A DNA stretch of 32,000 nucleotides from Pyrodictium abyssi (GCF_036323395.1 NZ_AP028907.1:90001-122000), one strand, 5' to 3'. Numbered from the stretch's first letter, positions 17,937 through 30,988 are shown. Numbers and translations: made by a program. Notes: a model not told the origin generated them from the letters alone.

Positions 17937-19139
17937 CTACTCTCCGAGCCTCTGGAGGAGCCTAGTAGTCAGCATTGCGACCCTAACCTTGCCGGTGCCG
18001 CGTGCCAGTAGTAGGCCGTGCTGGAGCACCGTGTAGCACTTTATACACGGCGTGACCACCTCGCTTACGCCTTGCCTCATTATCCTCTCAGCTCTCCAGC
18101 GGTAGACACGGCTACGCGTCTCGACGAAGGGCTTCTCGCGGAGATAGTTGACGCCTCCTCCGCCGCCACAACAGAACGTGAGAGGCGGCCTATCCTTCAT
18201 CAGCCTAGAGCCGGACAGCCTCGTGACCACTGGGCAGGCATAGCGGTAGCCGAAGCGGCAGAACCCGCAGCTCGTGAAGAGCACAGAACCCGTATCCCCG
18301 CTAATGCTCTCCAGTAGGCGGCGTGGTGCACGCCGATCCACAATGGTGAACACGTTTACGAACTCCACGCCGCCTAGCCTAGTGAGCCCGTACTTCTCGG
18401 CCATGTGGACAAGCTTCACGTCGGCGCCGCACGCCGAGGTTATCACGGTTTTTGCACCAAGCCTCTTAGCCTCCTCGACTACCCTCTCGAGCATAGCGGC
18501 GCCTATATCCGGTCTCGCCGCGTCAACCGCAACATTGCCGCCCAGGTCCAGGGCTGCGGGCGAGACGGTGACCTCGACGCCTATACTACGGAGTAGCTGG
18601 AGTGTCTCACTGAGCCTATCCGGGTACAGTGTCGTCTCAAACGGAGATGGCACGTATAGTGCTTCGCCCGGCGCGCCTGGCTCCACGCCAGCCTTGCGAG
18701 CTGTCTCCTCGAGGACCCAGCGCGGCTCTCTCGGGTCCAATGTGAAGCTGTGGCCAGAGCGTGCGCCGTTCACCGCCACCTGCTCTAGGCTCTTGGGCGC
18801 CTTGCCCTCTAGGCTCAACTTCATTTTGGCTGCGTGTACTAGCCTCCACACCTCTATACCGTAGGGGCACAGAGCTGTACACGCGCCACACATACTGCAC
18901 GTATAGAGGGTGTACATGTCGTCCTCCGTGACCCTGTCGTTGAGCAGCACCTTTGCTGCCGCTTTTAGGCGGCGTGGCGGTGATAGCTGGGGATCCCGCG
19001 TAGCGCGGTACGAGACACAGCCTGCGAGGCATATTAGGCACTGGCTACAGGCTGCTAGCGCTTCACGTGCTATCTCCTCGGCCTCCGCTATCATGTCTTT
19101 TACGCCGCTGCGCTCGACCCTCATCATCTTTAACTCCAT
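17937..19139 (-). CDS. HdrD/GlpC-like iron-sulfur oxidoreductase with two ferredoxin-type 4Fe-4S motifs and CCG domains
   Basis: CSQCLICLAGC and CSMCGACTALCP cluster motifs are present, along with the CCG-domain signatures FCCGGGGG and TPCIKC (plus SCGFC). The track ORF runs to 19208 but crosses the AT-rich divergent promoter, so the start is probably the Met at 19139 (MELKMM...), 19127 or 19124. Confidence 0.8.
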   Translation of the reverse strand: MELKMMRVERSGVKDMIAEAEEIAREALAACSQCLICLAGCVSYRATRDPQLSPPRRLKAAAKVLLNDRVTEDDMYTLYTCSMCGACTALCPYGIEVWRLVHAAKMKLSLEGKAPKSLEQVAVNGARSGHSFTLDPREPRWVLEETARKAGVEPGAPGEALYVPSPFETTLYPDRLSETLQLLRSIGVEVTVSPAALDLGGNVAVDAARPDIGAAMLERVVEEAKRLGAKTVITSACGADVKLVHMAEKYGLTRLGGVEFVNVFTIVDRRAPRRLLESISGDTGSVLFTSCGFCRFGYRYACPVVTRLSGSRLMKDRPPLTFCCGGGGGVNYLREKPFVETRSRVYRWRAERIMRQGVSEVVTPCIKCYTVLQHGLLLARGTGKVRVAMLTTRLLQRLGE

Positions 19140-19217
19140 GTTAATAGCCCCTATGCAGAATTCAGAGCTAAAAAGCCAATCTATAGGGTGTATATCGCAA
19201 GTTTCCAAACTAACACC

Positions 19218-19223
19218 TATAAA
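19218..19223 (+). promoter_or_regulatory. TATAAA box upstream of the PDO-like gene
   Basis: TATAAA lies about 40-45 nt upstream of ATG 19263, inside a ~120-nt AT-rich divergent intergenic region. Confidence 0.35.
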
Positions 19224-19262
19224 GCTGTTAATAGTTTCGCTGGGCGCGGGGGACCAAAACCG

Positions 19263-19904
19263 ATGGTTATAGATGAGGCTGCACTACGTGCTGCTATAAC
19301 CGATGCCCTCCTCCGGTCAGCAGGGCTACCAACGCTAGCCGACGTTGAGAAAATGCTGTCCAAGGCCGAGAAGAGCACAACCGTAACCATAGTAGTCGAC
19401 GGCTCCAAGTACGGCAAGGCCGGGGCCGATCTAGTGGAGAAGCTCGTAGGTAAGTACGAGTCTGTAGAGGTAAAGGTGTCGGAGAAGACTAGCTGGCCCT
19501 CCGACCTACCTCCGCCCCTCATAGTGGTCGGAGGGGGTCTCGGCGGCCGTCTACTGTTCTACGGTGCTCCTGCAGACGTACTGTCGCCGATGTTCATGCT
19601 GGCTGTCGCGGCGTCGTGTGGAGCGTGGAGGCCTAGCAGCTGTAGCGGGCTGGAGGGGGCCCGTGGGAGGGCTAGGCTATACGTGGTGCCGGGTCTACCA
19701 TGCGCCCGCGCGATATACAATTCGCTGCATGTACTCTATTGCAGTAGGGCTGCGGAGCTGGAGATAGTTAACGTGGAGGGCTACTACGCGATGGGTAAGG
19801 AGCTCCCGGTGAAGCAGGTGCCAACGTTCGTATCGCCTAGCGGTAAGAGGCATACTGCTACGCCTAGGAGCCCTGCAGAAGTCCTCAGCTGGTGGAGCAG
19901 CTAG
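19263..19904 (+). CDS. degenerate two-unit thioredoxin-fold protein (PDO-like), monothiol
   Basis: LLFYGAPADVLSPMF resembles the PDO F.G.P.G.E motif. In the second unit, YVVPGLPCARAIY sits where CPYC is expected and VKQVPTFV where the cis-Pro loop is expected. The first unit has no Cys at the CXXC position. Start moved to ATG 19263, downstream of the TATA box; the track start is 19188. Confidence 0.5.
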   Translation: MVIDEAALRAAITDALLRSAGLPTLADVEKMLSKAEKSTTVTIVVDGSKYGKAGADLVEKLVGKYESVEVKVSEKTSWPSDLPPPLIVVGGGLGGRLLFYGAPADVLSPMFMLAVAASCGAWRPSSCSGLEGARGRARLYVVPGLPCARAIYNSLHVLYCSRAAELEIVNVEGYYAMGKELPVKQVPTFVSPSGKRHTATPRSPAEVLSWWSS

Positions 19905-20022
19905 CCCAATCACAGTGATTGTTTCCTGGACCTAGTTTCGTACTATACGCGACAATACAGATAAACGTTGGCAACGAGGACCCATCGTGAATGGATGAGT
20001 ATTCCCGCGGGGGTGCCGTGCT

Positions 20023-20268
20023 ATGGCGAGGGCAGAAGAGCTGGACCTCACGAAGCTGACCGCGCTCTGCGGCGACTTCAGTGTGCACATACTTGCTAAG
20101 CTGGAGGGCCTAGAGAAGGGCGATAGGCTTACCGTCAAGATAAAGAAGGAGGACCGTGAACTCCTAGAAGCAGCTATATCTGCTATAAGGGATGCTGGCG
20201 TAGCAGAGCCCATCGAGGAGGGTGAGGAGGGCGAAGCCTTCTACATAGTTCTCGAGAAGCGGAGGTGA
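20023..20268 (+). CDS. TusA/SirA-like small protein (candidate sulfur-carrier fold)
   Basis: 81 aa, the same length as E. coli TusA. It shows the pattern LD...L...C(G)D......KL..L..GD.L.V.......  ...YIVLEKR. The conserved Cys is retained, but CP is replaced by CG. Confidence 0.5.
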   Translation: MARAEELDLTKLTALCGDFSVHILAKLEGLEKGDRLTVKIKKEDRELLEAAISAIRDAGVAEPIEEGEEGEAFYIVLEKRR

Positions 20269-20278
20269 ATACGACTAG

Positions 20279-20899
20279 ATGTTTTCAGGCACCGAGCTAG
20301 TCTCTTTCACAGTAAGTTACGGTTTCGCCATATTCCTTGTCGCCGCGCTAGCACCGCTAGTCTACGTTGGGCTAGGAGGCACCCCTGGGTACCGGAACTC
20401 CCTTAGGACGACAATGAGGCTACTACGCAGCACACTCGCAGCCCCCATGCTGGAGCACCCTATGCCCCTAGTAGCCGCTATCGCATCACTATTCCATGCC
20501 AGCATAGTCATAGCGTTAGCCGCGCATCTAGTCCTGGCAGGTGCCCAGTGGAATGGAGGACTTTATCAGCTCTCGTCCACAGCCGTAGCGGCTATACTCT
20601 ACGCGAAGAGGACTGCCGCAGTGATTATCCTGTTCACCGCCCCAGTACTGCTTAGTGTCAGGCTCTACACCGGCGCTAGGTTTAGGCTTTTCAACTGGAA
20701 GCACGTCCTTCTCACTATAGGCGATCTGCTGCTACTAGTACTAGCGGCGACAGGGCTCATGATGCGAGGCAATACGGGCCTTCTCATAGCCCATGTGGCC
20801 ACCGGGCTTATCGCTGTAGCCTACTTCATCGTACTGCTCGCTGTGGGGCACCGTCTATACTCGCGGGCTCTAGCCGAGAACCGTGTACTCGAGGTGTAG
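20279..20899 (+). CDS. NarI/HdrE/DsrM-like integral membrane protein (candidate dihaem cytochrome b)
   Basis: About five TM helices and no Cys. His73/His83 are 10 residues apart in one helix and His172/His191 are 19 apart in the last helix. This approximates the NarI haem-ligand spacing (10 and 18) as I remember it. Confidence 0.5.
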   Translation: MFSGTELVSFTVSYGFAIFLVAALAPLVYVGLGGTPGYRNSLRTTMRLLRSTLAAPMLEHPMPLVAAIASLFHASIVIALAAHLVLAGAQWNGGLYQLSSTAVAAILYAKRTAAVIILFTAPVLLSVRLYTGARFRLFNWKHVLLTIGDLLLLVLAATGLMMRGNTGLLIAHVATGLIAVAYFIVLLAVGHRLYSRALAENRVLEV

Positions 20900-20906
20900 C
20901 GTTACA

Positions 20907-21476
20907 ATGCCCTCAAGGGCTCTGACGGCTGGTATACTCGTAGCCCTGCTGTCTGTAGCGATTCTACTAGCTCTAGACCGTATATACGCGAGCAAAGCCG
21001 CTACCACTGTGCCAGCAGCCTCAACCACCGCTACCAGCAGCCAGCAAGAGATCCATGGGAGAATAGTAGTTATACTAGGCACTGAGAGCTGCCCCCACTG
21101 CCGCGCTATGGAGGCATTCTTCCGGGAGGAGTTGCCGGGCCGGGCGTACTTCTGCGAGATAACGGAGAAGGGCTCTAGCTGTGAGGCTGCGTTCGGCCTC
21201 CTAGTCAGCAAGAGGGTTACAATGGCTGTACCCACTATGGTCGTCTGTGACACGGATAGGCGCGTCGTAGAGGGAATAATCATAGGAGAGTTCCGGGACG
21301 CTAAGTGGTGGAGAAACGTCCTCGAAAACGGTCTACCAGGAGGCAATGAGACCAGTATACCCGTGTACATGGTTGACCGGGTAACCGGTGCTATGGAGGT
21401 CGAGCCCAGGGCCATGGAGAAGCTCTATAGCGTGCTATGCAACGCTACTCTAGCTGATGCCAAGCCTCTAGGGTGA
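20907..21476 (+). CDS. membrane-anchored extracytoplasmic thioredoxin/glutaredoxin-like protein, CPHC active site
   Basis: An N-terminal TM anchor (ALTAGILVALLSVAILLAL) is followed by a Thr/Ser/Ala-rich linker, then VVILGTESCPHCRAMEAFF and a cis-Pro-like AVPTMVV. Start taken as ATG 20907; the track's GTG at 20883 overlaps the upstream gene. Confidence 0.75.
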   Translation: MPSRALTAGILVALLSVAILLALDRIYASKAATTVPAASTTATSSQQEIHGRIVVILGTESCPHCRAMEAFFREELPGRAYFCEITEKGSSCEAAFGLLVSKRVTMAVPTMVVCDTDRRVVEGIIIGEFRDAKWWRNVLENGLPGGNETSIPVYMVDRVTGAMEVEPRAMEKLYSVLCNATLADAKPLG

Positions 21477-22150
21477 CGGTGGGCCGTATGGGCCTACTCG
21501 CAGAGCTTTTCACACTAGCAGCGCTCGATAGCATAAACCCATGCACATTCTACATCTATACAGTCCTCCTGCTCTCGGTCTCCATAAGAGAGCAGAGCAG
21601 CCGTGCAGTACTGGCTACCGGGTTAGCTTTTGTCGCTGGCGTCTACCTGGGCTACACGCTGCTTGGACTCGGAATCGCCGGGGCTGCCGCTGCGCTTCCA
21701 GTATGGCTTCTATCATTGGCAGCTGGGGGCTACGGCGCCTACACTATAGTTGCCGGGCTCTACGAGCTACGGGGGAGAAAGCGGCCCGGACCCCAGAGGC
21801 CTGGGGGCAAGCTGGCCCCAAGAGCTCTACGGGTCACGAGTAGGCTAGGCGCCTTCGGGCTAGGCCTGCTACTCTCGTTCACACTATTGCCGTGCAGTGG
21901 CGGCCCGCTAGTAGCCTTCGTGATGCTAGCTAGCGCCGAGGGCTACGGTGGGCTGCTCGTAGCTCCTCTTCTGCTGCTCTACAATCTAGTCTTCGTCTCA
22001 CCGCTGATAGCTATAGGCCTCGCAGCTGCTGCTGCCTACCGTGTAGAGCGGGTACAACAGGCGATAGCCCGTGCAGGCCCCTATGCCTCCATATTCGCAG
22101 GCCTTGCACTGATAGCCATTGCTGTCTATATCTATGTGCGGCCTGGCTAG
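21473..22150 (+). CDS. ccdA: CcdA/DsbD-family thiol:disulfide transmembrane electron transporter
   Basis: Six hydrophobic helices carry the two family-defining Cys motifs: LDSINPCTFY in TM1 and LLPCSGGPL in TM4. The GTG start overlaps the upstream stop (GTGA); ATG at 21488 is an alternative. Confidence 0.8.
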   Translation: MTVGRMGLLAELFTLAALDSINPCTFYIYTVLLLSVSIREQSSRAVLATGLAFVAGVYLGYTLLGLGIAGAAAALPVWLLSLAAGGYGAYTIVAGLYELRGRKRPGPQRPGGKLAPRALRVTSRLGAFGLGLLLSFTLLPCSGGPLVAFVMLASAEGYGGLLVAPLLLLYNLVFVSPLIAIGLAAAAAYRVERVQQAIARAGPYASIFAGLALIAIAVYIYVRPG

Positions 22151-24363: not shown

Positions 24364-25788
24364 TTACTGTAGACGCTCGCCTATGTAGGCTGCTATGTGC
24401 CTTACCTGTGTCTTTAGCCCGTATAGCTGCGCGCCGCCAGCTATGGAGTGCATGCAGACCGGACACGCCGTGACTACTATATCGGCGCCGCTCTTCTTGA
24501 TGTCGTCTATCTTCCTCTTCACGGCTATTGTCCAGTGCTCTGCTGTCTTCTGTATGAATTCTAGCTCCTTCTCTCCCGCTACGAGGTCCTTGCTGGAGAC
24601 GCCTAGTAGCTTGCCCATCTGCTCTAGCATCTCCATGTTCATACAGCCTATGCCTCCGCCGCCACCGCAGCAGTAGCTCTCAGCGCCGTGGTGCGGTAGC
24701 TTGCGGAAGCCCTTGCTAGCCGCGCTGAGTACGAAGTTGGGCTCCTCAGTTACGCCGCCGCGGCGTGCGAGCTGGCAGGGGTCGTGCCAGGTTACCTTGT
24801 CGTCGGTCTGGTTTAGCTTGAGCTTGCCCTCCTTTATCAGCTTCTCGAAGAGCTCCACTATGTGTAGTACACGGTAGCTCGGCCGGCGGCCTAGCACCTT
24901 GGGCATCTGGAACCTTAGCCACGGGTAGACGAACCCGCCGTCAAGGAGCACTACGTTCTTGGGCTCATACTTTGATATGTCTGCGTTAAGCATCTTTAGC
25001 ATCTCTCTGGCCTGCTTGAATAGGCCTATGACCGCTGCTATTGGCGGGCGGAATGCGAACGGCTTGCTCGGCAGCGTCCAGTCTACCCCGGCGCGGTCTA
25101 GCACCCTCATTGCGCCTATGACCGCGTCTGGGTAGAACATCGCGTCAGCCATGTTCACTAGGAGGAAGTACTCGGCGCCCTTCTTGTCGAATGGCAGCGG
25201 CTTGCCCAGCGCCTGCTCAGCCTTCTTCATTACCTCGTTCCATATGTACATGAAGCTGGGTATCTTGAGGAAGAGCTTCTCGCGCTCTATTACGTCGAAT
25301 ACAGCTATCAGCGTAGGCGCACGGCCAGACTTGGTGGCTATGCTGGCTAGTATACTCTTTATTATCGCGCCGCTATCGATACCGAAGGGGCATGATACGT
25401 AGCATGCACCGCAGTTGGTACAGCGGTAGACCGCCTCGACGATTGTATCTAGGTCTTTCTCGCTCTTGGGCTTCTTCGCGTTGAGCAGCGGGCCGAGCAG
25501 CTTACCTAATATAGTCGCCTCCTTTCTGTAGATGTTGCGTGCTAGCTCAGCCTTCTCTACCGGGCCGTACTTCTCGGATACATAGTAGTAGGGGCACGAT
25601 GGGGCGCACGCTGCGCATCCTACACAATTCTCGAGGAAGTGTAGCTTGACTGAGTCTAGTGTCGCTAAAGCCTCCTGTATAGTCTTCTCAACCCTGTCAG
25701 CCTGAAAGCCCTCCCACGATATGTTCCTCTTTATCTCCTCTAGCAGCTTCCTAACGTCGGGGCCTGGAGCCGCTTCCGCCACCAACAC
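24364..25788 (-). CDS. isp2: Isp2: HdrD/DsrK-like FeS protein with CCG domains (hydrogenase-associated)
   Basis: CVGCAACAPSCP and CTNCGACYVSCP 4Fe-4S motifs are present, with CCG signatures HDPCQLARRGG, YCCGGGGGIGC and TACPVCMHS. It lies immediately downstream of the cytochrome b gene, as in hynS-isp1-isp2-hynL operons. GTG start. Confidence 0.9.
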   Translation of the reverse strand: MLVAEAAPGPDVRKLLEEIKRNISWEGFQADRVEKTIQEALATLDSVKLHFLENCVGCAACAPSCPYYYVSEKYGPVEKAELARNIYRKEATILGKLLGPLLNAKKPKSEKDLDTIVEAVYRCTNCGACYVSCPFGIDSGAIIKSILASIATKSGRAPTLIAVFDVIEREKLFLKIPSFMYIWNEVMKKAEQALGKPLPFDKKGAEYFLLVNMADAMFYPDAVIGAMRVLDRAGVDWTLPSKPFAFRPPIAAVIGLFKQAREMLKMLNADISKYEPKNVVLLDGGFVYPWLRFQMPKVLGRRPSYRVLHIVELFEKLIKEGKLKLNQTDDKVTWHDPCQLARRGGVTEEPNFVLSAASKGFRKLPHHGAESYCCGGGGGIGCMNMEMLEQMGKLLGVSSKDLVAGEKELEFIQKTAEHWTIAVKRKIDDIKKSGADIVVTACPVCMHSIAGGAQLYGLKTQVRHIAAYIGERLQ

Positions 25789-25825
25789 TATTCACCCCAT
25801 GAACATGTGTCACGAGCATGAGGGG

Positions 25826-26638
25826 TTAGACGAGGCCCTTCTGTACACGGAGGTCGTACCATTCGTGTAGCTTTCCGTACCAGTAGCCGAACACGAAGTG
25901 CCAGTACTTGCTGAAGGGTATCAGCATTAGCAGTATCTCGGCACCGAGTATGTGGAAGCCCAGCACTGTTCTGTAGGTGCCTACGTCCATTGTGACTGTT
26001 CCTGTAGAGTGCCTGGCTGCTGCGTAGCCTGTTAGCAGTATGAACATTAGCAGGCCTAGCGAGAAGTAGTCGCTCCACCTTACGTGGCGGAGCCCGTGGG
26101 CCTGCTCCATCACCTTAGTGCCTATCTTGAACGCTACACCGAGTATAGCTAGTATGGCTAGCACGTCACCGTTGAGTATCACTGTTAGCGGGCCCCAGAT
26201 GCTGTTGACGAACTTAACCTCTATTGGCGAGGTTATGGTTAGGGTTGAGGTTGTCACGCTCAGCGGTATCCATAGCCCAGTCTCTGCTACTAGCTTGTAT
26301 GGTGCGAACCAGTAGGCGAAGAACGCTACATGGTGTGCTAGCAGGAATATTAGGGGTAGCACGCCTACGATGTGTAGTGCTACTAGGCCTGCTAGGAAGT
26401 CGTGTGGCTTCGCCTTCATGCTGAATATTATGGGGTCTACGAATGTTCTTACAAGCCCTATTATCCATGCTCCTACTCCGCGGTTGCGCGGCTCAGCCTT
26501 CACTACGCGGCGCCAGAGAAGCACCATCTTGGCTAGCCTGTAGGCGGTGCCGAAGGCGAATACTGTTATCGCTACCCAGAAGAAGTAGTATACTGCGAAG
26601 CTGTAAACATCCGCAGTACTACCGCCCAAGTACCCCAT
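25826..26638 (-). CDS. isp1: Isp1: NarI/HdrE/DsrM-like dihaem cytochrome b membrane anchor
   Basis: A multi-TM protein containing LHIVGVLPLIFLLAHH and GFHILGAEILLMLIPFSKYWH. The two His in the second motif are 18 residues apart, and the PFSK..H motif is typical of the nitrate-reductase-gamma fold. Confidence 0.85.
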   Translation of the reverse strand: MGYLGGSTADVYSFAVYYFFWVAITVFAFGTAYRLAKMVLLWRRVVKAEPRNRGVGAWIIGLVRTFVDPIIFSMKAKPHDFLAGLVALHIVGVLPLIFLLAHHVAFFAYWFAPYKLVAETGLWIPLSVTTSTLTITSPIEVKFVNSIWGPLTVILNGDVLAILAILGVAFKIGTKVMEQAHGLRHVRWSDYFSLGLLMFILLTGYAAARHSTGTVTMDVGTYRTVLGFHILGAEILLMLIPFSKYWHFVFGYWYGKLHEWYDLRVQKGLV

Positions 26639-26767
26639 TAACCTGCCACCTCACCCTTCCATCCCATACAGTAGTACACGGTACGCTCCACAACTGTTAT
26701 GGACACAGCCCTAGGGCGCTAGGCTGGGGCAAAAAGCCCGGATACTACGCGGCTCTTGCAAGCCTCT

Positions 26768-28198
26768 TTAGCCGCGTCCCTGCTCCTTCTTGGCCCTCTC
26801 AGCCTTCTTCTCGACCATCTTAGATACTCCATAGGCTACGGCTGCACCCGCTACAGCGGCTACAGCGGCACTAGCCGCAGTAGAGGCTGTACTCGGCGTT
26901 GTGGGCGCCTGTAGCGGCTTGTAGAACGGCTCGAACGCGTCAGTGAAGCCCGGCATGGTACAGCCTATACACACGCCGCCGGTCCTCGTGGGGCCGCCTA
27001 CGCCCTCGACCCAGCCGACCTTGTTCCAGGGACAGTTGCTGATCGGGCCCTTACAGCCGACTGCGAAGAGGCACTTGTAGTCAGAGTCACCAGGCTCCTT
27101 ACGGAGGTCGCCGGCAGCGTAGCTCCCTGCCCTCGGGCACTGCTCGTGCACTGTTGGACCGAAGATGTACTTTGGCCTCCAGTACTGGTCGAGCTCTGGC
27201 AGCGGTAGGATGCCCTTAGCCCACAGTATCAGGTTGGCTATGACGCGGAGCTGGCCGTTACCGTTCGCAGGACAGCCGGGCACGGCGATGGCCGGCCGGC
27301 AGTCTGGCCTAATCTCGCCAGGCTTTAGGGAGCACTTACCGTAGACGAAGTTGCGGAACGGCTTCGCCTCCTCGAGCAGGTCTACTAGGCCCTTGTTGCC
27401 CCTAACCGGGTCGGGGAAGAAGCCTACCGCGCCCGTTGGGCTAGCGCTCCATCCCTTACCAGCCCATGTCTCGAATAGGTCGTAACCCATCTTCTTCACG
27501 AACTCTACCTCTACTACCTTGTTGGCGGGGATGCCGCCGTAGCACGCACAGTTGCCGACAGCAATCACTGCTACCGCGCGCGGTAGAAGGCGCCTCATCC
27601 ACTCCGTACACGATATAGGCTTACCGTTCTCGTCGCCTATGTAGCAGAAGTAGTCGCTATAGAGTGGGCCCCCAGCCTTCTCGTCTATGGGGAAACTGCC
27701 CTCAAGCACGAGTATGAATGGGTCGAGCTTGCCCTGCTCTGCGAGCTTTAGCACGTCTATAGGGCTTGTGAGGAGTAGGCCGGGGTTGTAGCCTAGGTCA
27801 AGGAAGGTCTTTAGGGTCTTCTTGAGCGGGTCATCGTCGGGGAGCTTCTCCACGAGGGCGGCTACTTCCTCGGGGCTCATCTCGGCGAGCTTCTTAGCGT
27901 ACTCGGGTGTCTCCTCGCCCCAGCTGAGCATCACCGTCTCATGGAAGAGTAGCTTTACTGTACCCGGGCCTGCCACGTGGCTGTAGCCGCCTAGAACCTC
28001 GACGAGGTCGGGCTTGGTAGCCTGGATTATCGCTGTCGTGTTGCCAGCGCAGTCCTGCGCCTCGAACCATATTATGTTTATACCGCCCGACTTGACCTCG
28101 GCTATGGCCTTCTTTATCAGCTCGTCCCAGTTGAGGCTGGCGAAGAATGCTGCAGTCCCCGTGAGCTTTAGAAAGTCCCTACGGGAGAGCTTGGCCAT
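26768..28198 (-). CDS. hynS: [NiFe]-hydrogenase small subunit, Tat-exported, with C-terminal TM anchor
   Basis: A twin-arginine signal (SRRDFLKL) is present. Collinear small-subunit motifs are IIWFEAQDCAGNT, LEGSFP, AVIAVGNCACYGGIPA, VPGCPANG, VHEQCPR, CLFAVGCKGPISNCP and VCIGCTMPGF.D. The C-terminus is a Thr/Ser/Ala linker plus a hydrophobic helix. Confidence 0.9.
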   Translation of the reverse strand: MAKLSRRDFLKLTGTAAFFASLNWDELIKKAIAEVKSGGINIIWFEAQDCAGNTTAIIQATKPDLVEVLGGYSHVAGPGTVKLLFHETVMLSWGEETPEYAKKLAEMSPEEVAALVEKLPDDDPLKKTLKTFLDLGYNPGLLLTSPIDVLKLAEQGKLDPFILVLEGSFPIDEKAGGPLYSDYFCYIGDENGKPISCTEWMRRLLPRAVAVIAVGNCACYGGIPANKVVEVEFVKKMGYDLFETWAGKGWSASPTGAVGFFPDPVRGNKGLVDLLEEAKPFRNFVYGKCSLKPGEIRPDCRPAIAVPGCPANGNGQLRVIANLILWAKGILPLPELDQYWRPKYIFGPTVHEQCPRAGSYAAGDLRKEPGDSDYKCLFAVGCKGPISNCPWNKVGWVEGVGGPTRTGGVCIGCTMPGFTDAFEPFYKPLQAPTTPSTASTAASAAVAAVAGAAVAYGVSKMVEKKAERAKKEQGRG

Positions 28199-30025: not shown

Positions 30026-30988
30026 TTATTGTAGGCCGAGCCTCTGGCGCGCTCTGCGGCACGCTTCAACCATTTCCTCATCTATTATCGGTATGCCTTT
30101 CTCGTAGAACCACTCGCCGAAGTCGTGGTCGCTGGTGAGTATATGGTTCTTCACCCACTCGGACAGGAAGTGCAGGATACTCAGTGTTAGCTGCTTCTCG
30201 CCAGCCTCGTACTGCTCCATGAACTCTGCTACCTTCTTTACGAAGCCCTCGTGCTGGCGGCGGTGGCTCTCTGCGCGTGGGTACCCGTACTTGTCGAAGA
30301 GCTTCTCCTCGCTGCGGAAGTGGAACTTGGTGTAGTCTACCAGGCTGTTGAGCGTCTCATCCACTACTTTCTTTTCTTCGCCGGCTAGTATGCTTATGTA
30401 GAGGTTGTTTAGCACCGTGACCAGGTAGCGGTGCTGGTTGTCGACGCCCCGGATGTAGACGCTGAACTCGGGCCCCCAGCGGTACATGTAGCGCCTCAGC
30501 TTGGCCACGACGACGCGTACCTTGCCAGTCCACTCGTCAAGAGCATGCAGTGCGTCGAGCCCATAGCTTACGCCTAGGCCCGGCTCCTCGAGGCGTACAG
30601 CAGTGATTATTACACCATACGTTAGTATCCATGCGTTAAGCCTCTCCCCCTCTATTATGAGGAGCCGGGGCCCCATTTCGGGCTCGAGCCTGGATGCTAC
30701 AAGGTGTTTCACTTGGCCCTGGAGCCCGTGTAGCCGCGTCTCGAACTCCTCCTTGGACTCGGCTGCTTCGAGTATGTAGAGAACGAGGCTTGGATCGTCA
30801 AGCAGTCTACTATTCCACTCTATGCTCTCGGCGACGTAGGAGAAGGGCGGCACCATTGTCTTCGGTATGGGTTTTCTCTCCTCAGGTATCTCGTCCACGC
30901 CTACCTCTACTATGTACCGTACGTCTGGGTCGCGTGTATGCCACCAGTATCGGAGCTTGCGTAGAAACCCGGGTGTCAAGGAGACCAC
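30026..30988 (-). CDS. two-domain protein: unknown N-terminal domain (~170 aa) fused to a C-terminal hemerythrin-like metal-binding domain
   Basis: The C-terminal part (about 30101-30475) has the bacteriohemerythrin ligand pattern: VDNQHRYL, YTKFHFRSEEKLF, YPRAESHRRQHEGF, WVKNHILTSDHDF. The N-terminal half has no motif I recognise. GTG start. Confidence 0.8.
   Translation of the reverse strand: MVSLTPGFLRKLRYWWHTRDPDVRYIVEVGVDEIPEERKPIPKTMVPPFSYVAESIEWNSRLLDDPSLVLYILEAAESKEEFETRLHGLQGQVKHLVASRLEPEMGPRLLIIEGERLNAWILTYGVIITAVRLEEPGLGVSYGLDALHALDEWTGKVRVVVAKLRRYMYRWGPEFSVYIRGVDNQHRYLVTVLNNLYISILAGEEKKVVDETLNSLVDYTKFHFRSEEKLFDKYGYPRAESHRRQHEGFVKKVAEFMEQYEAGEKQLTLSILHFLSEWVKNHILTSDHDFGEWFYEKGIPIIDEEMVEACRRARQRLGLQ

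Follow-up and report, generated by a model that had tools for sequence, protein, structure and literature searches.

Several described redox systems each resemble part of the gene cluster reported here, which consists of six adjacent genes at positions 17,937 to 22,150 of a 32,000-nucleotide stretch of the Pyrodictium abyssi genome (GCF_036323395.1 NZ_AP028907.1:90001-122000; the whole stretch is called the window below). In DsrMK, HdrDE and Isp1-Isp2, and likewise in HmeCD and TmcBC, a membrane di-haem cytochrome b is combined with a cytoplasmic iron-sulfur (FeS) protein of the CCG-domain type. Every HdrD/DsrK-type enzyme known to us has small heterodisulfides or DsrC as its substrate, and the HdrD-family relatives Isp2, HmcF and TmcB are, to our knowledge, still without defined substrates. 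CcdA-ResA, DsbD-CcmG, SoxV-SoxW and CcdA-Etrx combine a transporter carrying PC-motif cysteines in transmembrane segments 1 and 4 (TM1 and TM4) with an outward-facing, membrane-anchored CxxC thioredoxin, and all CcdA/DsbD pathways that we know of draw their electrons from cytoplasmic thioredoxin and NADPH. The PDOs of Pyrococcus furiosus, Aeropyrum pernix and Sulfolobus solfataricus and the N-terminal domain of AhpF (AhpF-NTD) act as redox carriers in the cytoplasm, each with a dedicated reductase to reduce it. TusA, the DsrE3-TusA-Hdr-like relay, and the DsbA-DsbB and VKOR systems offer further points of comparison.

The Pyrodictium cluster brings parts of these systems together. It encodes an HdrD-like FeS protein, a small membrane protein that is probably a cytochrome b, a CcdA-like transporter with its outward-facing thioredoxin, and two predicted cytoplasmic carriers of PDO and TusA type. 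Our favoured reading, to which we give a probability of about 0.4, is that a quinone-linked HdrD/cytochrome b module exchanges electrons with the CcdA-thioredoxin relay via the two cytoplasmic cysteine carriers, and the gene cluster suggests that thiol chemistry outside the cell is wired to the respiratory quinone pool. Unlike in DsrMK, HdrDE and Isp1-Isp2, the genes for the FeS and membrane proteins are not adjacent, the former being divergent and the latter standing third in the opposite operon; the candidate substrates would be proteins of PDO and TusA fold and not DsrC or CoM-S-S-CoB. Unlike in CcdA-ResA and its kin, the apparent electron donor would be a pair of carriers without CxxC, joined in one branch by the HdrD-like protein, and not thioredoxin with NADPH-thioredoxin reductase. 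A first-pass annotation of the window had known of no described system with this composition; in agreement with it, a targeted full-text literature search found no paper describing an HdrD/cytochrome b module together with a CcdA-thioredoxin operon and two CxxC-less carriers.

All six open reading frames (ORFs) are present where the first-pass annotation had placed them, with probable starts refined from the orthologues of Pyrodictium delaneyi and Pyrodictium occultum. The cluster is laid out as follows (lengths in amino acids, aa, or base pairs, bp):

17937-19139, minus strand: HdrD/DsrK/Isp2-like cytoplasmic iron-sulfur protein (HdrD-like), 400 aa, from MELKMM; the ORF is open up to 19208 and the probable start is the ATG at 19139
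19140-19262, no strand: divergent intergenic region, 123 bp, AT-rich, with TATA-like boxes facing both ways
19263-19904, plus strand: PDO/AhpF-N-terminal-domain-like protein (PDO-like), predicted cytoplasmic, 213 aa
19905-20022, no strand: spacer between the PDO-like and TusA-like genes, 118 bp
20023-20268, plus strand: TusA-like protein, predicted cytoplasmic, 81 aa
20279-20899, plus strand: membrane protein without cysteine, 206 aa
20907-21476, plus strand: thioredoxin-fold protein with a CPHC motif, membrane-anchored and outward-facing, 189 aa
21488-22150, plus strand: CcdA/DsbD-beta-like thiol-disulfide membrane transporter (CcdA-like), 220 aa

The HdrD-like gene is split from the other five by a divergent arrangement, as had been described, across the 123-bp spacer. 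This spacer carries the TATA-like, AT-rich boxes CCTATAAAGC towards the PDO-like gene and TCTATAGGGTGTATATCG towards the HdrD-like gene; its AT-rich blocks are kept within Pyrodictium in an alignment with five orthologous spacers, and we infer that the boxes are putative promoters. On the plus strand, the TusA-like, membrane, thioredoxin and CcdA genes are separated by gaps of at most 11 bp, the membrane gene lying 10 bp from the TusA-like gene and 7 bp from the thioredoxin gene. Every orthologous locus has some 80-135 bp between its PDO-like and TusA-like genes, and this spacer is a possible internal promoter. At 19907-19921, 3 bp past the PDO-like stop codon, the spacer of the window contains CAATCACAGTGATTG, a perfect 15-bp palindrome with 7-bp arms and a 1-nucleotide centre, which is found only here and in a near-identical contig (L002) and is absent from the P. 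delaneyi and P. occultum spacers; because its loop is too short for a hairpin, it may be a candidate regulator binding site. The cluster proteins have 84-94% identity to their best matches, which come from Pyrodictium metagenome-assembled genomes (MAGs), 45-75% to P. occultum and 53-80% to P. delaneyi Su06. Antisense ORFs of 100-200 aa lie over the real genes, for example at 18274-18864 (plus strand), 18018-18317 (plus strand) and 20870-21415 (minus strand); they are typical of high-GC (about 60%) coding sequence and are not genes.

The six protein families

The call of an HdrD-like CCG/FeS protein is borne out by Pfam, which finds Fer4_8 (40 bits), Fer4_17 and CCG (32.9 bits, cut-off 20.6) in it, all above threshold, and by homology over the full length between this family and the Isp2 family of the same genomes (hhalign probability 99.1, E = 1e-18, 23% identity); the Isp2-like gene of the window lies about 5 kb from the HdrD-like gene. 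The N-terminal part matches HdrC in the PDB. As in the DsrMK, HdrDE and Isp1-Isp2 enzymes, the protein carries two ferredoxin-type cluster motifs, CxxCxxCxxxC (C31/34/37/41 and C81/84/87/91), and a CCG site (C291-x31-C323C324G-x40-C365xxC368), which aligns with C338/CC373-374/C442xxC445 of Isp2; together with C237 these account for the 14 cysteines that are invariant among seven orthologues. A second complete CCG domain, as in HdrB and HdrD, is missing: Pfam finds one CCG stretch, the first CCG half is degenerate, and the region of residues ~160-240 retains only C237. Unlike HdrD, the protein thus has a single intact CCG site. Its NCBIfam scores lie far under the equivalog cut-offs (61.7 of 750 bits for HmcF, 52 of 735 for TmcB and 47 of 400 for DsrK), and on this ground we class it as a distinct subfamily of the HdrD/DsrK/Isp2 family.

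The membrane gene codes for a protein of 206 aa with no cysteine and five predicted TM helices, its N-terminus outside and its C-terminus inside; lysine plus arginine counts are 4, 4 and 3 in loop 1, loop 3 and the C-terminus (inside) and 0, 0 and 1 in the N-terminus, loop 2 and loop 4 (outside). Across family members of 26-54% identity, 20 alignment columns are invariant and four of these are histidines, an enrichment with a hypergeometric P of 9e-4, while the other two histidines of the window protein vary. The invariant ones form the pairs H73/H83 in TM2 (spacing 10) and H172/H191 in TM5 (spacing 19), and the C-terminal tail has a conserved R-x-L-x-V. In a six-sequence NarI profile that was built from plasmid records, the invariant histidines are H56/H66 in TM2 and H187/H205 in TM5, with spacings of 10 and 18. 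The protein is therefore comparable, in its small size, five predicted TM helices and four histidines in TM2 and TM5, to the membrane partner of the DsrMK, HdrDE and Isp1-Isp2 systems, and we take it to be a probable di-haem b protein whose ligands are arranged as in NarI. An AlphaFold2 (AF2) model from four sequences places helices at 4-31, 62-91, 100-134, 140-161 and 166-200, with low confidence (pLDDT 64, pTM 0.56).

For the family of this membrane protein, a profile search of 1.84 billion representative proteins gave three clusters only, a word-based search of 5.8 billion sequences gave three homologues, and two more distant orthologues were found in loci L057 and L059; an exact-sequence look-up of the window protein returned no match. 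Matches to TAL-effector repeats in a PDB profile search with the family (E ~1e-9) are spurious, because they sum many weak repeat segments. Three other roles were considered for the protein and rejected: a VKOR- or DsbB-like role is ruled out by its lack of cysteine, WWD-type haem handling by the lack of a Trp-rich motif, and YeeE/YeeD-type thiosulfate uptake was dropped since YeeE is a different family with conserved cysteine.

The last two genes are classed as a transmembrane thiol-disulfide relay made of CcdA and an outward-facing CPHC thioredoxin, and here motifs, anchoring and fusion in many archaea uphold what the first-pass annotation had proposed. The CcdA-like protein has six hydrophobic segments, with DSINPC19 in TM1 and FTLLPC136SGGP in TM4 invariant in 12 sequences, and alignment of the family with E. 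coli DsbD (hhalign pairwise E = 0.0025, 147 columns of the beta domain) sets both onto the catalytic cysteines (FTPC and SPC). It also matches NCBIfam ArsG weakly over its full length (25 bits), and some homologues are annotated as CcdA by JGI. Unlike the CcdA of the known pairs, the family is missed by Pfam: neither DsbD nor DsbD_2 matches any of 12 members, and a PDB search with the CcdA profile gave no CcdA match. A Pfam Phage_holin_3_6 match lies below threshold and is an artefact of the hydrophobic segments. The thioredoxin has an N-terminal TM segment, a linker rich in Ser, Thr, Ala and Pro, and NxS/T sequons; CPHC and a (V/I)P loop are invariant in 11 sequences, separate and CcdA-fused forms taken together, and a second conserved cysteine pair (FC-x6-9-C..F) and a cis-Pro VPT loop are also present. 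Pfam matches of this family are sub-threshold only, to Thioredoxin_2 in 7 of the 11 sequences and to Glutaredoxin in 5. CPHC is the active-site motif of DsbA and not that of ResA or CcmG, which sets the protein apart from the thioredoxins of the described CcdA pairs.

Thioredoxin and CcdA genes lie side by side in all Pyrodictiaceae loci, and about 13 other loci, from Desulfurococcales, Sulfolobales and other Thermoprotei, have them joined in one ORF, which indicates that the two proteins work together; the pair is old and autonomous. In the fused forms (L015-L018, L021-L026, L033, L039), which are about 380-540 aa long, an N-terminal TM segment is followed by a CPHC thioredoxin domain and a CcdA domain; CPHC and both PC motifs are retained. 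They represent a minimal archaeal DsbD-like fusion, of which both parts have close Pyrodictiaceae relatives that the Pfam DsbD and thioredoxin models miss. The neighbours of the fused genes (ThiD-like, MFS, radical-SAM-like) show lineage-specific synteny only and give no functional clue.

An AF2 model of the PDO-like protein, built from eight sequences with high confidence (pLDDT 94, pTM 0.91), consists of two tandem thioredoxin folds, the architecture that PDOs and AhpF-NTD have in ~215 aa. In Foldseek its best match is AhpF-NTD (6il7, E = 2e-9, TM-score 0.73), and the PDOs of P. furiosus, Pyrococcus horikoshii, Aquifex aeolicus, A. pernix and Sso1120 are matched too (PDB entries 1a8l for P. 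furiosus, and 2ywm, 1j08, 2hls and 4mnn); the TM-scores for AhpF-NTD and PDO lie at 0.65-0.73, and the probability is 1.00 for AhpF-NTD and the PDOs of P. furiosus, A. aeolicus, A. pernix and Sso1120. Unlike in these proteins, there is no CxxC in either fold, in the sequence or in the orthologue alignments, so that the description as a PDO-like protein with degenerate active sites was apt. C147 is the only cysteine that is invariant across PDO-like variants; it sits in YVVPGLPC, where helix 1 of the second fold begins, GLPC taking the place of CPYC. Two other cysteines (near 127-129 and 160-161) are kept only roughly in position, and the cis-Pro loop reads VP(T/A)F. The neighbouring gene codes for an FeS/CCG protein and not for a flavoprotein reductase, another difference from PDO and AhpF-NTD. 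Pfam does not match the protein, and a PDB sequence search with the family profile gave nothing significant.

Several weak signals are consistent with the TusA-like call and its single conserved cysteine. The window protein has no Pfam match at E <= 1; in its family, five of seven members match Pfam TusA (PF01206) below threshold (best E = 0.017) and two of seven match DUF2249 (E = 4e-4), which we take to be a TusA-related family. An hhalign comparison of the family with E. coli TusA (pairwise E = 0.0037) sets C16 on C19 and GDRL on GETL, and the sequence was read by eye as beta-alpha-beta-alpha-beta-beta. C16 is the single invariant cysteine, in LCGD[FY]. The protein thus resembles those of the TusA and DsrE3-TusA-Hdr-like relays in its size of ~80 aa, in the position of its cysteine and in lying near an Hdr-family gene; it differs in that the CPxP motif is absent, CGD[FY] standing in its place in all seven sequences, and in that no DsrE, rhodanese or LbpA gene is nearby. 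A PDB sequence search with the TusA-like profile gave nothing significant. Among the domains by which the first-pass annotation proposed to confirm its family calls, CCG is found above threshold, TusA and Thioredoxin_2 below it and in part of the family members, and Nitrate_red_gam and DsbD are not matched.

Conservation and expression of the cluster

GTDB species genomes were scanned with the CcdA profile, and all loci were then searched with hidden Markov models of the six families. The variants are:

Two-gene or fused variant: thioredoxin and CcdA, adjacent or in one ORF of ~380-540 aa; many Desulfurococcales, Sulfolobales and other Thermoprotei MAGs
Three-gene variant: PDO-like, thioredoxin, CcdA; L061 (metagenome contig)
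Four-gene variant: PDO-like, TusA-like, thioredoxin, CcdA; L005/L010 and L009 (Pyrodictiaceae-labelled)
Six-gene variant: HdrD-like divergent from PDO-like, TusA-like, membrane, thioredoxin, CcdA; window, L001 (P. delaneyi Su06), L002, L004 (P. occultum-type contig), L006, L012, L057/58, L059/60
Partial six-gene loci: L003, L008, L045

The six genes occur in identical order in eight distinct locus types in spite of a membrane-protein identity that falls to 26%, which argues that the arrangement is not due to chance. In every six-gene locus the membrane gene lies between the TusA-like and thioredoxin genes, and the HdrD-like and PDO-like genes always stand back to back in divergent orientation, also in the metagenome locus L045. 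The eight locus types have both the HdrD-like and the membrane gene, and three (L005/L010, L009 and L061) have neither; this strict co-occurrence, as for the partners of the DsrMK, HdrDE and Isp1-Isp2 systems, fits two subunits of one enzyme. A scan of metagenomes with the HdrD-like profile added only two orthologues, the one in L045 and another at a contig end. Outside Pyrodictiaceae-labelled genomes and related contigs, no PDO-like or TusA-like gene was seen; L061 lacks the TusA-like gene. Synteny across Desulfurococcales and Thermoproteales, on which the first-pass annotation had made its proposal depend, did not appear, conservation being confined to the Pyrodictiaceae-labelled genomes and related contigs.

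The three- and four-gene loci have a different genomic context, with an aldo-keto reductase gene upstream. In these variants, which lack the HdrD-like and membrane genes, genes for a thioredoxin, a major facilitator superfamily (MFS) transporter and the aldo-keto reductase lie 1-5 kb upstream; the thioredoxin (L005 872-1273 and L061 2125-2517, both minus strand) is a classical cytoplasmic one of ~130 aa matched by Pfam Thioredoxin. It might be an alternative electron donor, or its presence might be a coincidence.

In L057 and L059, no hydrogenase genes were found within 7 kb downstream, so that the six-gene unit appears independent of the Isp/hydrogenase neighbourhood that it has in the window. 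The link to sulfur respiration or to the hydrogenase that had been suggested for the cluster is doubtful, both on this account and because P. delaneyi, which reduces iron and nitrate, retains the cluster.

For P. delaneyi, we assigned Pyrde locus tags by gene order from Pyrde_0387, the membrane protein, and consulted published proteomics (PMC8105010, supplementary file 2). This organism depends on H2 for its reduction of iron and nitrate; 17 c-type cytochromes are predicted for it, of which 13 were detected, and its quinone is probably methylmenaquinone. The PDO-like protein (Pyrde_0385) is significantly more abundant on ferrihydrite than on nitrate (adjusted P = 8e-9, log2 fold change 3.98; the listed values correspond to about 6-fold), and the same table of proteins raised on ferrihydrite includes haem-biosynthesis enzymes and a multihaem cytochrome c. 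The HdrD-like protein (Pyrde_0384, annotated "Fe-S oxidoreductase") was detected at unchanged or lower abundance (adjusted P = 1, log2 fold change -1.1). Pyrde_0388 is listed without quantification, and Pyrde_0386, Pyrde_0387 and Pyrde_0389 were not found in these proteomics data (PMC8105010).

A candidate relay and its alternatives

The quinone-linked relay that we favour would be built in three layers. In the first, which homology and motifs show, CcdA shuttles two reducing equivalents from one side of the membrane to the other, its two TM cysteines undergoing thiol-disulfide exchange, and gives them to, or takes them from, the outward membrane-anchored CPHC thioredoxin. In the second, two dedicated carriers of the Pyrodictiaceae, the PDO/AhpF-NTD-fold protein with one cysteine in a GLPC turn and the TusA-fold protein with one cysteine, may serve the cytoplasmic side of CcdA, replacing or supplementing ordinary thioredoxin; on delivering two electrons they could form a protein-protein heterodisulfide. 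In the third, predicted for the Pyrodictium/Hyperthermus-like branch, the HdrD-like protein would dock on the cytoplasmic face of the 206-aa membrane protein, and its CCG-type [4Fe-4S] site would reduce or oxidise this heterodisulfide, or the PDO-like protein alone. The membrane protein would hold two b haems, the inner one ligated by H73/H191 and the outer one by H83/H172, and pass electrons to or from the (methyl)menaquinone pool, as HdrDE, DsrMK and Isp1/Isp2 do. The net result would be that extracytoplasmic thiol redox is coupled to the quinone pool and not to NADPH/thioredoxin reductase. Electrons could run either way, in quinol-driven reduction or in quinone-driven, DsbB-like oxidation, and candidate external targets would be apocytochrome c CXXCH motifs, disulfides or persulfides of surface proteins, and polysulfide. 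The more specific claim of a respiratory-chain-coupled extracytoplasmic thiol redox pathway, free of thioredoxin reductase and running via a PDO-fold/TusA-fold heterodisulfide, we consider somewhat unlikely.

Favouring the relay are the family assignments for five of the six proteins, the insertion of the membrane gene in a packed TusA-like/thioredoxin/CcdA operon in every six-gene locus, and the detection of both the HdrD-like and the PDO-like protein in P. delaneyi. The fused thioredoxin-CcdA forms, the joint presence or absence of the HdrD-like and membrane genes, the constant pairing of the HdrD-like with the PDO-like gene, the occurrence of the unit away from hydrogenase genes and the histidine layout of the membrane protein speak for it too. 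The functional link is drawn from gene order and co-occurrence in one archaeal family, and the haem b call from the histidine pattern. If electrons run from outside to inside, the system would be like DsbA-DsbB or VKOR in coupling an outer CPHC thioredoxin-fold protein to the quinone pool, and unlike them in having no DsbB or VKOR homologue and in a coupling through CcdA, cytoplasmic carriers and an FeS enzyme that is without precedent.

Were the relay real, it would be the first genomic case of an Hdr-type enzyme wiring extracytoplasmic thiol-disulfide chemistry to the quinone pool, and it would provide an orphan branch of the HdrD family with protein substrates of PDO and TusA fold. In the thiol-to-quinone direction it would be a functional analogue of DsbA/DsbB or VKOR assembled from Hdr and CcdA parts, and could answer how strictly anaerobic hyperthermophilic archaea shed the electrons of disulfide-bond formation; in the quinol-to-thiol direction it would be a new way to power DsbD-type reduction. 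In either case it bears on how electrons for disulfide chemistry are supplied or removed in hyperthermophilic anaerobes, and on what replaces CcmH and the CcmG/DsbD-type thioreduction proteins, which a 2015 survey did not report in most archaeal systems of cytochrome c maturation.

A number of observations weigh against this reading. The core of PDO-like, thioredoxin and CcdA genes, with or without the TusA-like gene, exists in related genomes without the HdrD-like and membrane genes, so these two appear not to be essential to the relay. It is possible that the PDO-like gene is transcribed apart from the rest, given the AT-rich spacer of ~100 bp behind it. Part of the synteny is inherited collinearity, since the six-gene loci all come from a single family and have a common upstream flank, which runs from homoserine dehydrogenase to RNA ligase and YbjQ. 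In P. delaneyi, no clear co-regulation of the HdrD-like with the PDO-like protein is seen. As for chemistry, some CCG proteins, such as GlpC, GlcF and LutA, act on substrates other than disulfides, and the reduction of a thioredoxin-type disulfide by menaquinol is uphill. This thermodynamics and the DsbA-type CPHC motif are compatible with a flow from thiol to quinone and a DsbB-like role; every CcdA pathway known to us is reductive.

The assignment of the membrane protein is the other point of difficulty. No Pfam family, Nitrate_red_gam included, is matched at E <= 10 by any of six family members; hhalign comparisons with E. coli NarI or the NarI profile are not significant (E = 0.035-0.53), nor is the one with Isp1, and a PDB profile search with the family gave no NarI. 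Foldseek with the AF2 model found nothing in the PDB at E <= 0.001, and NarI was not one of the 50 matches listed; we read this as uninformative and not as negative. The Pfam result is not decisive either, since Pfam likewise misses all four orthologues of Isp1, which is an accepted cytochrome b encoded in the same genome. The top local hhalign alignment, although not significant, always sets H73/H83 on H56/H66 of NarI. With no significant similarity to NarI, DsrM, Isp1 or any haem b family, which also distinguishes the protein from the membrane subunits of the DsrMK, HdrDE and Isp1-Isp2 systems, haem binding is deduced from the histidine pattern. Of the label "NarI-like" used in the first-pass annotation, what survives is the four-histidine layout, held down to 26% identity; no Pfam, hhalign or fold match to NarI accompanies it, and the match to a haem b or NarI-like family on which that annotation had staked its proposal did not turn up.

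Three other explanations compete with the quinone-linked relay. The cluster might be an accessory of cytochrome c maturation, in which CcdA and the outward thioredoxin reduce apocytochrome c CXXCH, as CcdA-ResA and DsbD-CcmG do, the PDO-like and TusA-like proteins act as cytoplasmic donors, and the membrane and HdrD-like proteins supply electrons or handle haem. We find this unlikely on balance: the CPHC motif is, as noted, of DsbA and not of ResA/CcmG type, the membrane protein lacks WWD and Trp-rich motifs of the haem-handling kind, ccm genes are absent from the window and from the flanks of related loci, and the CPHC-thioredoxin/CcdA unit is also present, usually fused, in other Desulfurococcales and Thermoprotei MAGs. 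It occurs as well in Sulfolobales, an order outside the few for which a survey covering more than 300 archaeal proteomes reported c-type cytochromes, and these in some species only. In its favour, biochemical work detected cytochrome c in the sulfur-reducing complexes of P. abyssi and Pyrodictium brockii and, as mentioned, many are predicted in P. delaneyi, where Pyrde_0385 rises on ferrihydrite together with enzymes of haem biosynthesis and a multihaem cytochrome c; Pyrodictiaceae-labelled genomes and related contigs are the only places in which the PDO-like and TusA-like additions were found, and the Pyrodictium species treated in the literature on these cytochromes make c-type cytochromes. 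Such an accessory would also fill a thioreduction branch that went unreported in the 2015 survey of archaeal System I, which found ccmB/C/E/F in archaea with cytochromes c and CcmH only in Ferroglobus placidus, and which makes no mention of CcmG, CcdA or DsbD.

It is rather unlikely, in our view, that the cluster consists of two independent neighbours, a self-sufficient reductive export system of PDO-like, TusA-like, thioredoxin and CcdA proteins, fed by a general cytoplasmic thioredoxin or PDO reductase, and a DsrMK/Isp-like quinone-linked enzyme that acts on another cytoplasmic disulfide or is an alternative electron module for the nearby hydrogenase. The core without HdrD-like and membrane genes, the uncoupled abundances of the HdrD-like and PDO-like proteins in P. 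delaneyi, the single family and common upstream flank of the six-gene loci, and the closeness of the paralogous Isp1/Isp2 pair, for which no disulfide substrate is known, would all fit it. An unrelated enzyme is nevertheless hard to reconcile with the insertion of the membrane gene, apart from the HdrD-like gene, between the TusA-like and thioredoxin genes with gaps of at most 10 bp in every locus. Moreover, among the three clusters and two distant members of the membrane-protein family, every member whose context was examined belongs to this gene cluster, no HdrD-like orthologue was found elsewhere, and the pair persists where hydrogenase genes are not adjacent. The remaining explanation, trafficking of sulfane sulfur, appears improbable. 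Here the TusA-like protein would carry a persulfide and the HdrD-like protein process it, as in sHdr or DsrC-type chemistry, with the CcdA-like protein and the outside thioredoxin handling polysulfide or persulfidated proteins at the surface of a sulfur-respiring Pyrodictium. The cysteine of the TusA-like protein at the TusA Cys19 position agrees with this, as does the tie of the HdrD family to DsrC/TusA sulfur chemistry. Set against it are the missing CPxP motif, the lack of the TusA-like gene in L061, the absence of rhodanese, DsrE, DsrC and sulfur-reductase genes from the window, and the full conservation of the cluster in P. delaneyi, with its iron- and nitrate-reducing metabolism. As precedents, SoxV/SoxW is a CcdA-thioredoxin pair dedicated to sulfur oxidation, and CcdA-fed periplasmic thioredoxins have been proposed to take part in polysulfide reduction in Pelobacter.

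Hydrogenase genes and the rest of the window

The second HdrD-like/membrane pair (isp1/isp2) that the first-pass annotation had noted close by is present, beside the gene for a [NiFe]-hydrogenase small subunit:

24364-25788, minus strand: Isp2-like protein, 474 aa, paralogue of the HdrD-like protein; NCBIfam DsrK at 170 bits, below cut-off
25826-26638, minus strand: Isp1-like protein, 270 aa, presumed hydrogenase cytochrome b
26768-28198, minus strand: [NiFe]-hydrogenase small subunit (hynS), 476 aa, group-1g module, with Pfam matches

The invariant histidines of Isp1 (H88, H102, H184, H209, H228, H246 and H257 in four orthologues) differ from the NarI pattern. No large-subunit gene adjoins the hydrogenase module (24364-28198, minus strand). 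In P. delaneyi, Pyrde_0393-0395 have been assigned to the membrane hydrogenase, and the large subunit is Pyrde_0647, about 250 genes away; the small subunit, Pyrde_0395, is labelled "Hyaluronate lyase" in the supplement of PMC8105010, which looks like a mis-annotation.

The rest of the window is of housekeeping type and includes genes for mannosyl-3-phosphoglycerate synthase, a LysX-like protein and carbamoyl-phosphate synthase as well as arginine and aspartate-family genes. Finally, a 320-aa protein with a C-terminal hemerythrin HHE domain is encoded at 30026-30988 on the minus strand, and two related loci likewise have hemerythrin-domain genes close to the cluster, that of P. delaneyi (L001, 4978-5763) and the P. 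occultum-type contig (L004, from 16003 to the end of the locus).

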